This document shows positions 792 through 3,944 of a DNA stretch of 64,000 nt, piece after piece. Position numbers and translations under genes: made by a program. Where the stretch lies: assembly GCF_056746865.1 (NCBI RefSeq), contig NZ_CM163382.1; one strand, given 5' to 3'. The stretch's first letter is position 1; each line of letters begins with the position of its first letter. Under the pieces are notes generated by a model. That model was given only the letters and a program-made list of their open reading frames with translations, did no database searches and was not told the origin of the DNA.

Positions 792-3431
792 ATGCTGGGT
801 AAATATAAAGCCGTTCTCGCGCTGTTATTACTGATTATTCTTGTGCCGTTGACGCTGCTGATGACGCTCGGCTTGTGGGTTCCCACGCTGGCGGGCATCT
901 GGCTACCGCTCGGGACACGTATTGCATTAGATGAAAGCCCACGCATTACGCGTAAAGGTTTAATCATCCCCGATCTCCGTTATCTGGTGGGAGATTGTCA
1001 GCTTGCGCATATCACCAACGCCAGCCTTTCACATCCCAGCCGCTGGTTATTGAACGTCGGTACGGTAGAACTTGATTCTGCTTGTCTGGCGAAATTGCCG
1101 CAGACGGAGCAATCGCCAGCTGCTCCAAAAACCCTCGCGCAGTGGCAGGCCATGTTGCCTAACACCTGGATCAATATCGATAAACTGATTTTTTCTCCCT
1201 GGCAGGAATGGCAGGGAAAACTCTCTCTCGCATTAACCTCCGATATCCAGCAACTGCGTTATCAGGGCGAAAAAGTTAAATTTCAAGGCCAGCTGAAAGG
1301 GCAACAACTTACAGTCAGCGAACTGGATGTCGTCGCGTTTGAAAATCAGCCGCCGGTTAAACTGGTGGGGGAATTTACTATGCCGCTAGTGCCGGATGGA
1401 CTTCCTGTAAGTGGTCATGCTACTGCGACGTTAAACTTGCCGCAGGAGCCTTCACTGGTGGATGCCGAGCTGGACTGGCAGGAAAATAGCGGGCAATTGA
1501 TTGTGCTGGCACGGGATAATGGCGATCCGTTGCTCGATCTGCCGTGGCAAATTACTCGCCAACAATTGACTGTAAGCGATGGTCGCTGGAGCTGGCCGTA
1601 TGCAGGTTTTCCTTTGAGTGGCAGACTGGGTGTCAAAGTCGACAACTGGCAGGCAGGGCTCGAGAACGCTCTGGTCAGCGGACGACTGAGTGTGCTGACC
1701 CAGGGGCAAGCGGGTAAGGGCAACGCGGTGCTTAATTTTGGCCCTGGAAAATTAAGCATGGATAACAGCCAGCTGCCTTTGCAGCTGACCGGTGAAGCGA
1801 AACAGGCGGATCTCATTTTATATGCCCGCTTACCTGCGCAGCTAAGCGGAAGTCTGACTGACCCAACGCTGGCCTTTGAGCCAGGCGCGTTATTACGTTC
1901 GAAGGGAAGAGTCATCGATTCGCTGGACATCGATGAAATCCGCTGGCCTTTAGCGGGTGTAAAAGTCACCCAACGTGGTGTTGACGGACGTTTGCAGGCC
2001 ATTTTGCAGGCGCATGAAAATGAACTGGGCGATTTCGTGCTGCATATGGATGGGCTGGCGAATGATTTTCTCCCTGACGCTGGCCGCTGGCAGTGGCGCT
2101 ACTGGGGAAAAGGGAGTTTTACACCGATGAATGCCACCTGGGATGTTGCAGGAAAAGGTGAGTGGCATGACAGCACGATTACGCTGACCGATCTCTCCAC
2201 CGGTTTCGACCAGTTACAATACGGTACGATGACGGTAGAAAAGCCGCGATTAATTCTCGACAAGCCCGTCGTCTGGGTACGTGACGCACAGCATCCCTCC
2301 TTTAGCGGCGCGCTGTCACTGGACGCCGGGCAAACGCTGTTCACTGGCGGCAGTGTGTTACCGCCATCAACCTTAAAATTTAGCGTCGATGGACGCGATC
2401 CGACGTATTTCCTATATAAAGGCGATTTACATGCTGGTGAGATTGGCCCGGTTCGGGTAAATGGTCGCTGGGACGGTATTCGTCTGCGCGGTAACGCCTG
2501 GTGGCCTAAACAATCACTGACCGTATTCCAGCCGCTGGTGCCACCCGACTGGAAGATGAACTTACGCGATGGCGAACTGTATGCTCAGGTCGCATTTTCT
2601 GCTGCGCCTGAACAAGGATTCCGCGCGGGAGGGCACGGTGTGTTGAAAGGCGGTAGTGCCTGGATGCCAGATAATCAGGTTAACGGTGTCGATTTTGTCC
2701 TGCCTTTCCGTTTTGCCGATGGAGCCTGGCATCTGGGGACTCGCGGCCCCGTTACGTTGCGAATTGCCGAAGTGATTAATCTGGTGACAGCGAAAAATAT
2801 TACGGCTGATTTGCAAGGGCGCTATCCGTGGACAGAAGAAGAACCATTGTTGTTGACTGATGTTAGCGTCGATGTGTTAGGCGGTAACGTGCTGATGAAA
2901 CAATTACGTATGCCGCAACATGACCCGGCGCTGTTGCGGCTGAATAATCTCTCATCCAGCGAACTGGTTAGCGCCGTCAATCCGAAACAATTCGCCATGT
3001 CCGGGGCATTTAGTGGTGCATTGCCGTTATGGCTAAACAACGAAAAATGGATAGTGAAAGATGGCTGGCTGGCAAATAGCGGGCCAATGACCTTGCGGCT
3101 GGATAAAGACACCGCAGATGCGGTGGTGAAAGGCAATATGACTGCGGGTTCAGCAATTAACTGGTTGCGCTATATGGAAATTAGCCGTTCATCGACAAAT
3201 ATTAATTTAGATAATCTCGGTTTATTAACCATGCAGGCCAACATTACAGGTACCAGTCGCGTTGATGGTAAAAGCGGTACGGTAAACCTTAATTACCATC
3301 ATGAAGAGAATATTTTTACGCTGTGGCGCAGTTTACGCTTTGGCGATAATCTCCAGGCATGGTTGGAGCAGAACGCACGTCTGCCGGGAAATGACTGTCC
3401 GCAAGGAAAAGAGTGTGAGGAAAAACAATGA
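792..3431 (+). CDS. ydbH: AsmA-like large envelope protein YdbH (879 aa)
   Basis: 879-aa ORF with N-terminal transmembrane segment; stop overlaps ynbE start (ATGA). Confidence 0.9.
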   Translation: MLGKYKAVLALLLLIILVPLTLLMTLGLWVPTLAGIWLPLGTRIALDESPRITRKGLIIPDLRYLVGDCQLAHITNASLSHPSRWLLNVGTVELDSACLAKLPQTEQSPAAPKTLAQWQAMLPNTWINIDKLIFSPWQEWQGKLSLALTSDIQQLRYQGEKVKFQGQLKGQQLTVSELDVVAFENQPPVKLVGEFTMPLVPDGLPVSGHATATLNLPQEPSLVDAELDWQENSGQLIVLARDNGDPLLDLPWQITRQQLTVSDGRWSWPYAGFPLSGRLGVKVDNWQAGLENALVSGRLSVLTQGQAGKGNAVLNFGPGKLSMDNSQLPLQLTGEAKQADLILYARLPAQLSGSLTDPTLAFEPGALLRSKGRVIDSLDIDEIRWPLAGVKVTQRGVDGRLQAILQAHENELGDFVLHMDGLANDFLPDAGRWQWRYWGKGSFTPMNATWDVAGKGEWHDSTITLTDLSTGFDQLQYGTMTVEKPRLILDKPVVWVRDAQHPSFSGALSLDAGQTLFTGGSVLPPSTLKFSVDGRDPTYFLYKGDLHAGEIGPVRVNGRWDGIRLRGNAWWPKQSLTVFQPLVPPDWKMNLRDGELYAQVAFSAAPEQGFRAGGHGVLKGGSAWMPDNQVNGVDFVLPFRFADGAWHLGTRGPVTLRIAEVINLVTAKNITADLQGRYPWTEEEPLLLTDVSVDVLGGNVLMKQLRMPQHDPALLRLNNLSSSELVSAVNPKQFAMSGAFSGALPLWLNNEKWIVKDGWLANSGPMTLRLDKDTADAVVKGNMTAGSAINWLRYMEISRSSTNINLDNLGLLTMQANITGTSRVDGKSGTVNLNYHHEENIFTLWRSLRFGDNLQAWLEQNARLPGNDCPQGKECEEKQ

Positions 3432-3613
3432 AAATTTTACTGGCTGCGTTGACGTCATCTTTTATGCTGGTTGGCTGTACGCCTCGCATTGAAGTCGCTG
3501 CACCTAAGGAACCGATCACTATCAATATGAACGTTAAAATTGAGCATGAGATCATCATCAAGGCAGACAAAGATGTCGAAGAGCTGCTTGAGACTCGTAG
3601 CGATCTTTTCTGA
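3428..3613 (+). CDS. ynbE: Small lipoprotein YnbE (61 aa)
   Basis: 61-aa ORF with lipobox-type signal (LVGC); start overlaps ydbH stop. Confidence 0.85.
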   Translation: MKILLAALTSSFMLVGCTPRIEVAAPKEPITINMNVKIEHEIIIKADKDVEELLETRSDLF

Positions 3614-3617
3614 GGCG

Positions 3618-3944
3618 ATGATGAAGAAAACATTACTTCTTTGTGCGTTTCTTGTTGGGCTGGTAAGCAGCAATGTAATGGCATTGACTCTGGATGAAGC
3701 CAGAACTCAGGGGCGGGTAGGTGAAACATTTTATGGTTATCTGGTTGCGCTGAAAACAGATGCTGAAACGCTGGAATTAGTAAAAGATATTAATGAAGCT
3801 CGTAATCTGAGTTACCAACAATTGGCAAAGCAAAATAATGTATCCACTGATGAGATAGCAAAATTGGCAGGGCAAAAAATGGTTGCTCGCGCGAAGCCGG
3901 GAGAATATGTGCAGGGGATTAATGGAAAATGGCTGCAAAAATAA
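3618..3944 (+). CDS. ydbL: Periplasmic protein YdbL (about 108 aa)
   Basis: ATG 5 nt after ynbE stop, GAGG 3 nt upstream, signal peptide MMKKTLLLCAFLVGLVSSNVMA; the ORF-track start at 3540 lies inside ynbE. Confidence 0.8.
   Translation: MMKKTLLLCAFLVGLVSSNVMALTLDEARTQGRVGETFYGYLVALKTDAETLELVKDINEARNLSYQQLAKQNNVSTDEIAKLAGQKMVARAKPGEYVQGINGKWLQK

Follow-up and report, generated by a model that had tools for sequence, protein, structure and literature searches.

Positions 792-3944 of a 64,000-nucleotide stretch of DNA (hereafter the window; NCBI RefSeq assembly GCF_056746865.1, contig NZ_CM163382.1) hold three genes, ydbH, ynbE and ydbL. We conclude, with a probability of about 0.9, that this region is the E. 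coli ydbH-ynbE-ydbL operon, which encodes an inner-to-outer membrane bridge thought to carry phospholipids. The genes, their order and the sequences of their junctions are the same as in K-12 (b1381-b1383), and YdbH and YnbE are near-identical to the K-12 proteins; hence, findings published for K-12 should transfer to the window locus. An earlier reading of this DNA from its sequence (the original prediction) had proposed a tightly coupled envelope operon whose products form a physical complex, and published work on this locus already covers the operon, the coupling and the complex. Our comparison of related loci further suggests that ydbH and ynbE may constitute a conserved obligate core, and that ydbL and the C-terminal tail of YnbE may be a dispensable accessory module lost several times.

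The mechanism that we favour starts from one mRNA that would yield YdbH, YnbE and YdbL. YdbH combines an N-terminal inner-membrane anchor with a long periplasmic beta-sheet groove. Ribosomes terminating ydbH translation at ATGA reinitiate on ynbE by means of a GAGG inside ydbH, an arrangement that ties YnbE synthesis to YdbH synthesis; ydbL, which follows after 7 nucleotides (nt) with a Shine-Dalgarno (SD) sequence overlapping the ynbE stop, would probably be coupled too. The YnbE strand I30-I38 joins the end of the YdbH groove at its last strand, where several YnbE copies may form a short stack, and the completed YdbH-YnbE bridge is thought to allow the passage of phospholipids, redundantly with TamB and YhdP. 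YdbL, sitting on the C-terminal helix of YnbE (K45-F61), limits runaway amyloid-like self-association of YnbE, and surplus YdbL titrates YnbE away and is toxic. The features on which this account draws are listed below; coordinates are those of the whole stretch, on the + strand unless stated, and genes were read from the list of open reading frames (ORFs) and their translations.

792..3431, +: ydbH, inner-membrane-anchored AsmA-like/repeating beta-groove protein, 879 amino acids (aa)
3417..3420, +: GAGG SD core for ynbE, within ydbH, 7 nt 5' of the ynbE ATG; read from the sequence
3428..3431, +: ATGA in which the ydbH stop and the ynbE start overlap, termination-reinitiation site (ynbE ATG 3428-3430, ydbH TGA 3429-3431)
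3428..3613, +: ynbE, outer-membrane lipoprotein, 61-aa precursor (stop TGA 3611-3613)
3467..3478, +: YnbE lipobox L14-V15-G16-C17, then Thr18; from the translation
3515..3541, +: YnbE I30-I38 (ITINMNVKI), beta strand that lengthens the YdbH groove by strand augmentation; residues as given by De'Ath et al. 2026
3560..3610, +: YnbE K45-F61, C-terminal helix and RSDLF tail, YdbL-binding element; from De'Ath et al. 2026, by nuclear magnetic resonance (NMR) and modelling
3612..3615, +: GAGG SD core for ydbL, overlapping the ynbE TGA stop (3611-3613); read from the sequence
3621..3944, +: ydbL, periplasmic DUF1318 chaperone-like protein, 107 aa; alternative, non-conserved in-frame ATG at 3618
3621..3683, +: YdbL signal peptide, residues 1-21 (ending NVMA), from the translation; alignment with the solved mature chain starts at residue 22
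3760..3944, +: 3' segment of ydbL that diverges from K-12 (about 76% nt identity, versus about 99% upstream); from the identity profile

We compared the locus with its relatives using a profile scan, with one genome per species and a 16-sequence YdbH alignment. The scan found 358 relatives; counts use the best 80 of the 358, all from Enterobacteriaceae, with YdbH 62-96% identical to the query. ynbE lies immediately 3' of ydbH at 80 of 80 loci and ydbL is present at 73. The ydbH/ynbE junction is ATGA (a 4-nt overlap, seen in the window at 3428-3431 as the original prediction had it) at 62 loci, TAATG (a 1-nt overlap) at 17 and a 2-nt gap at one, with an SD-like core no more than 15 nt 5' of the ynbE start at every locus. 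Since the overlap of the ATG with the ydbH stop is kept at 79 of the 80 loci, and the SD-like core at all of them, the arrangement exceeds what chance would give. Strong termination-reinitiation coupling has been measured experimentally at this overlap, the internal SD being 'strictly essential' for ynbE reinitiation (Huber et al. 2019, PMC6728339), and the distance dependence at the same gene pair was examined in the 2023 follow-up. The fragment used by Huber et al. (-99..+30) differs between the window and K-12 by a single base, at 3363. The ATGA overlap and the operon structure are also explicitly noted by Kumar et al. 2024 (Kumar, Davis and Ruiz).

The second junction required a correction. 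The original prediction had ydbL begin 5 nt past the ynbE stop, and there is an in-frame ATG at the fifth base (3618), but the conserved and annotated start is the other in-frame ATG 3' of the stop, at 3621, which leaves a 7-nt spacer and gives the 107-aa product. RefSeq and the K-12 annotation both use 3621. Across the 73 Enterobacteriaceae ydbL loci, an ATG is found at the 7-nt spacer in 57 and at the 4-nt spacer in only 24, and the GAGG at 3612-3615 lies 5 nt from ATG 3621 as against 2 nt from ATG 3618. These counts, the GAGG spacing and the alignment of the mature chain in the Protein Data Bank (PDB) from residue 22 make 3621 the better ydbL start. TGAGG is the usual ynbE/ydbL junction, and an SD-like core is present at 65 of the 73 loci. 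Co-translation had been claimed for all three genes: for ydbH-ynbE the claim agrees with the measured coupling, while for ynbE-ydbL we infer that coupling is probable.

All three products exceed curated family thresholds, confirming that the three genes are real. YdbH matches Pfam PF11739 over residues 14-862 of 879 (E=6e-291, 968.8 bits; cut-off 26.3) and the NCBIfam equivalog NF007971 (1398 bits; cut-off 824). It has a single N-terminal hydrophobic segment (residues ~1-40; hydrophobic 19-residue windows start only at 1-22), and its AlphaFold 2 model (predicted local distance difference test score, pLDDT, 84.5) has helices within 2-36 followed by about 50 beta strands, the protein being almost all beta. 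The predicted 61-aa lipoprotein is borne out by a PF13617 match (E=3e-16, 59.3 bits; cut-off 25.8) and the LVGC lipobox, and the predicted small periplasmic protein by a PF07027 (DUF1318) match (E=1e-29, 103 bits; cut-off 27) and a signal peptide ending in VMA; YdbL also matches PDB 28oj_A, 'Probable chaperone-like protein YdbL' (E=3e-44), in an alignment starting at residue 22 counted from 3621. An L/V-x-G/A-C lipobox followed by Thr was found at most of the 80 species loci. Outer-membrane routing is what the standard +2 rule predicts for YnbE, and fractionation also places it there (Kumar et al. 2024). YdbH had been described as a giant AsmA-like protein; the literature does place it among the AsmA-like proteins, but with 879 aa it is shorter than the two others with which it is redundant and, as the papers stress, too short to span the periplasm alone.

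Published work on K-12 connects these proteins in the way that the original prediction of a physical complex anticipated. Kumar et al. 2024 defined the YdbH-YnbE bridge by genetics and cross-linking: the two proteins interact and depend on each other, YnbE multimerises and cross-links to the YdbH C-terminus, and surplus YdbL has a dominant-negative effect. A crystal structure of YdbL (PDB 28oj) was solved by De'Ath et al. 2026, who used NMR and native mass spectrometry to show its direct binding to the C-terminal helix of YnbE (K45-F61). In K-12, ydbH is synthetically lethal with tamB and yhdP, and its loss leads to lipid-homeostasis defects (PMC8593681, PMC11126948). Lipid transport itself, the stoichiometry and the way in which an assembly shorter than the periplasm could span it are inferred in the field.

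We then asked how far the three genes travel together. At seven of the 80 Enterobacteriaceae loci (Enterobacter sp. ENT03, Enterobacter sp. kpr-6, Phytobacter massiliensis, Pseudescherichia vulneris, Atlantibacter hermannii and two uncultured genomes) ydbL is cleanly absent: the next gene begins 15-130 nt after ynbE and no ORF matches, on which grounds we rejected a diverged ydbL at these loci. A neighbour-joining tree of YdbH splits the seven into three or more groups, suggesting that ydbL was lost at least three times within Enterobacteriaceae; the deletions that removed it probably arose at an unstable 3' junction of the operon. For more distant relatives (YdbH 26-44% identical), we took eight representatives from an exhaustive HMMER search and inspected the genes around them. 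In L086/L087, L088, L089, L090 and L091, ynbE either overlaps ydbH or adjoins it directly, and no ydbL-like ORF was found within 4 kb (HMM at E<=10) in L083, L085, L086/L087, L088, L090 or L091; L084 is cut at a contig end and L089 ends at or just past ynbE, so that both are uninformative on ydbL. In P. aeruginosa, ynbE (PA5306) adjoins ydbH (PA5307) and is required for ydbH function. Thus, the linkage expected from the original prediction holds for ydbH and ynbE (80 of 80 loci) but only partly for ydbL, which is absent from seven of the 80 and from all six distant loci that extend past ynbE.

This distribution bears on whether YdbH, YnbE and YdbL form one complex in which each is an obligate, stoichiometric subunit and the genes are conserved as a unit, which we consider very unlikely. 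Structure-prediction programs do place YdbH, YnbE and YdbL together at the YdbH C-terminus, the level of YdbH drops without YdbL and full suppression of mucoidy requires ydbL (Kumar et al. 2024), and ydbL occurs at 73 of 80 loci, its 7-nt spacer and SD being generally conserved. However, YdbL is non-essential in a tamB yhdP background and toxic in excess (Kumar et al. 2024), cellular YdbL could be detected only on overexpression, and DegP degrades the free protein in vitro (De'Ath et al. 2026). Given this genetic dispensability and the lack of ydbL at the locus in seven of 80 Enterobacteriaceae and in the six distant cases, we conclude that YdbL is an accessory, chaperone-like factor and not an obligate subunit.

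The sequence of YnbE itself hints at what the accessory part comprises. The strand core ITINMNVKI is conserved at every locus, including the most distant. The C-terminal tail behaves differently: in this modest sample, with ydbL scored at the locus and counts made without phylogenetic correction, RSD[LI]F is present in YnbE at 73 of the 73 loci with ydbL, whereas five of the seven Enterobacteriaceae loci that lack ydbL carry unrelated sequence in its place (ERQNH, EQQEIKARE, HTDGESR, NERK and KEQK) and the other two have RSDLL, and RSDML with nine extra residues. The RSD[LI]F tail is likewise missing from all distant loci without ydbL. This co-variation fits both the published YdbL-YnbE interface and the dispensability of YdbL, and suggests an obligate core with an optional control module. 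We lean slightly towards this two-module organisation, in which the core would be YdbH with the YnbE strand, translationally coupled, and the option would be YdbL with the YnbE RSDLF tail, discarded at least three times in Enterobacteriaceae and absent in distant lineages. If so, lineages that lack ydbL would need some other restraint on YnbE self-polymerisation, or a YnbE that does not polymerise. We found no mention of co-variation between the YnbE tail and ydbL in those parts of the three key papers on the locus that we consulted.

A second alternative keeps the operon and the complex and gives them a role other than bulk phospholipid transport, such as handling another lipid or assembling outer-membrane proteins or lipoproteins. 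TamB, a relative of YdbH, was first tied to autotransporter assembly. A 'Dicarboxylate transport' label persists on YdbH homologues in some sources, direct evidence of transport by YdbH-YnbE is lacking, and in Citrobacter, Salmonella and Phytobacter the ynbABCD genes, whose products resemble phospholipid enzymes, lie directly 3' of the locus, a hint of a specific lipid. We nevertheless regard such a role as very unlikely, given the synthetic lethality of ydbH with tamB and yhdP, the lipid-homeostasis defects, and a groove fold that YdbH probably has in common with eukaryotic bridge-like lipid-transfer proteins. The ynbABCD adjacency is found in part of one family only and is broken by inserted islands in E. 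coli; restricted to some genera, it probably reflects ancestral synteny, a functional link being the less likely reading. Finally, although -4 and -1 overlaps are common among co-directional bacterial gene pairs, according to the literature, the proposal that the tight spacing is ordinary operon compaction, uninformative on interaction, deserves virtually no credence, because 79 of 80 species retain an overlap of this class and the published coupling and cross-linking experiments refute it.

Several observations weigh against a phospholipid bridge made by a coupled ydbH-ynbE pair. Lipid transfer is without biochemical demonstration, as Kumar et al. 2024 state, and the modelled YdbH-YnbE assembly measures ~180 A against a periplasm of ~250 A, so the model may lack a component or a stack of YnbE copies. 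No AsmA, TamB or other non-YdbH-like Pfam family matched YdbH at E<=0.01, its membership of the AsmA-like/repeating beta-groove superfamily resting on clan-level and structural arguments in the literature, and fold searches were unspecific, with outer-membrane beta-barrels scoring as well as or better than the solved members TamB (beta-taco) and BLTP1 (LPD-3), and LptD among the weak Foldseek matches. The mRNA fold of the -99..+30 fragment does not exceed shuffled controls in stability (z=+1.26), and the ynbE SD sits in a loop of the minimum free energy fold; the occluding structure that Huber et al. had proposed was thus not recovered. At locus L083 (6601-8089), from an Enterobacterales-like genome (YdbH 44% identical; flanks ldhA, azoR and hrpA), ynbE lies 1.25 kb downstream of ydbH with an opposite-strand Rnf-Nqr-family gene between them, and translational coupling of the pair is therefore broken; the YnbE encoded there is 78 aa, with a long unrelated tail. 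At L085 (4001-6922), neither ynbE nor ydbL was found within 4 kb of a 973-aa YdbH-like protein (34% identical), downstream of which lies fur, on the opposite strand. This protein may use an unlinked partner, or its extra ~100 residues may replace YnbE.

The window strain is E. coli, although not K-12: the gene trio is the one known from K-12, as the original prediction recognised, but ydbH, the 3' half of ydbL and the downstream neighbour all differ. The first 4.4 kb are 100% identical to several E. coli chromosomes and are found in 5417 of 5426 complete E. coli genomes. Relative to K-12, ydbH has 63 nt and 7 aa differences (protein 99% identical), and ynbE a single silent nt difference that leaves YnbE identical. 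Identity then falls from ~99% to ~76% near codon 47 of ydbL, with zero homology past the stop; the 3' 185 nt encode 12 substitutions and a product one residue shorter. Because identity drops in mid-gene and is lost after the stop, we consider ydbL to be a recombination mosaic beside a variable junction. This 3' allele and its flank occur in 141 of 5426 complete E. coli genomes, and a third allele (~85% identity) in about 375 genomes (O157:H7 and others). We compared the published YnbE-contacting residues of YdbL (K-12 R28, E60, R61, L68, K70, N72, A83 and L87): six of the eight are identical to K-12, E60 is replaced by Ala (with Glu at 59) and L87 by Met. Judged from these substitutions, the rare mosaic allele, with its changed contact residue, could be a natural functional variant.

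Upstream, the operon is bordered by the following features:

1..584, -: 5' part of ldhA (D-lactate dehydrogenase), divergent upstream neighbour, for context only; from the RefSeq annotation of the identical record
585..791, no strand: ldhA-ydbH divergent intergenic region, in which the operon promoter is presumed to lie

The full span of ldhA is window -405..584 (L001 7595-8584, RefSeq), and the arrangement is the same in K-12. The last 100 nt of the ldhA-ydbH spacer, the part compared, are identical to K-12, and a consensus scan of its + strand returned zero sigma-70-like sites. No Rfam family matched in 1-4600. No intrinsic terminator turned up 3' of ydbL in a scan as far as 4337, and 3930-4130 folds with unremarkable stability.

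Downstream of ydbL (3945-10189) are a 425-nt AT-rich spacer, an intact 1939-aa autotransporter of the BigA/YdbA type (PF25784, PF25783), pdxI and ydbD. The K-12 neighbourhood of ydbL instead contains feaR and the fea-tynA-paa cluster; the window has the autotransporter in place of that cluster, and it also lacks a long perfect inverted repeat found ~160 nt 3' of ydbL in K-12. The K-12 ydbA is presumably a pseudogene interrupted by insertion sequences. Genes ynbA-ynbB-ynbC-ynbD lie at 13796-18376, ~10 kb downstream of the operon, and are annotated as encoding a CDP-alcohol phosphatidyltransferase, a phosphatidate cytidylyltransferase, a hydrolase/methyltransferase and a PAP2 phosphatase. Across Enterobacteriaceae (L003-L082), synteny breaks at the 3' end of the operon: ynbA begins 90-190 nt after ydbL in about 13 species, and elsewhere azoR, a pdxI-like reductase or other genes follow.

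Pasteurellaceae-like loci have a further gene, encoding a very hydrophobic protein of 270-274 aa (HI_1241, PF27206), that ends where ydbH starts, with a shared or abutting stop/start (L086 3177-4001; L087 2001-2825; L090 3177-4001; L091 178-990). The operons with HI_1241 contain ynbE and no ydbL. HI_1241 proteins are probably polytopic membrane proteins, and could be an extra inner-membrane partner of YdbH in this lineage.

The ydbH-ynbE-ydbL operon and its interpretation are already known in detail, and what we find at the window locus adds no new knowledge, since all of it has been published for this exact locus. The setting is nonetheless important: phospholipid delivery to the Gram-negative outer membrane was long a gap in knowledge, and among the three redundant bridges that are candidates for it is YdbH-YnbE. 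Operons without ydbL and with decayed YnbE tails offer natural material on the purpose of YdbL and on the limits of YnbE stacking, and the divergent ydbL allele offers a natural variant of a published binding interface. These additions should be useful to those working on the system and leave the overall picture unchanged.

The closest comparisons are with the other two redundant AsmA-like bridges, TamB-TamA and YhdP. YdbH is shorter than either and, unlike them, relies on strand augmentation by a mature lipoprotein of 44 residues for its completion and has a dedicated periplasmic modulator. The papers also draw an analogy with the Lpt bridge (LptC-LptA-LptD/E), which likewise crosses the envelope through edge-to-edge beta-strand contacts and ends at an outer-membrane complex containing a lipoprotein; Lpt differs in its beta-jellyroll fold, its cargo and its ATP-driven ABC transporter, whereas YdbH has no known energy source. 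At the level of translation, the ydbH-ynbE pair resembles hyfH-hyfI, astD-astB and menD-menH, all with ATGA or TAATG overlaps and an SD inside the upstream gene, and it is a founding example among the pairs that established termination-reinitiation in E. coli. Lastly, Kumar et al. 2024 liken YdbL to CsgC of the curli system, a small co-encoded periplasmic protein that prevents mistimed or misplaced polymerisation of a beta-strand protein. The two are unrelated in sequence and fold: YdbL is alpha-helical and binds the C-terminal helix of its client, not the amyloid core.

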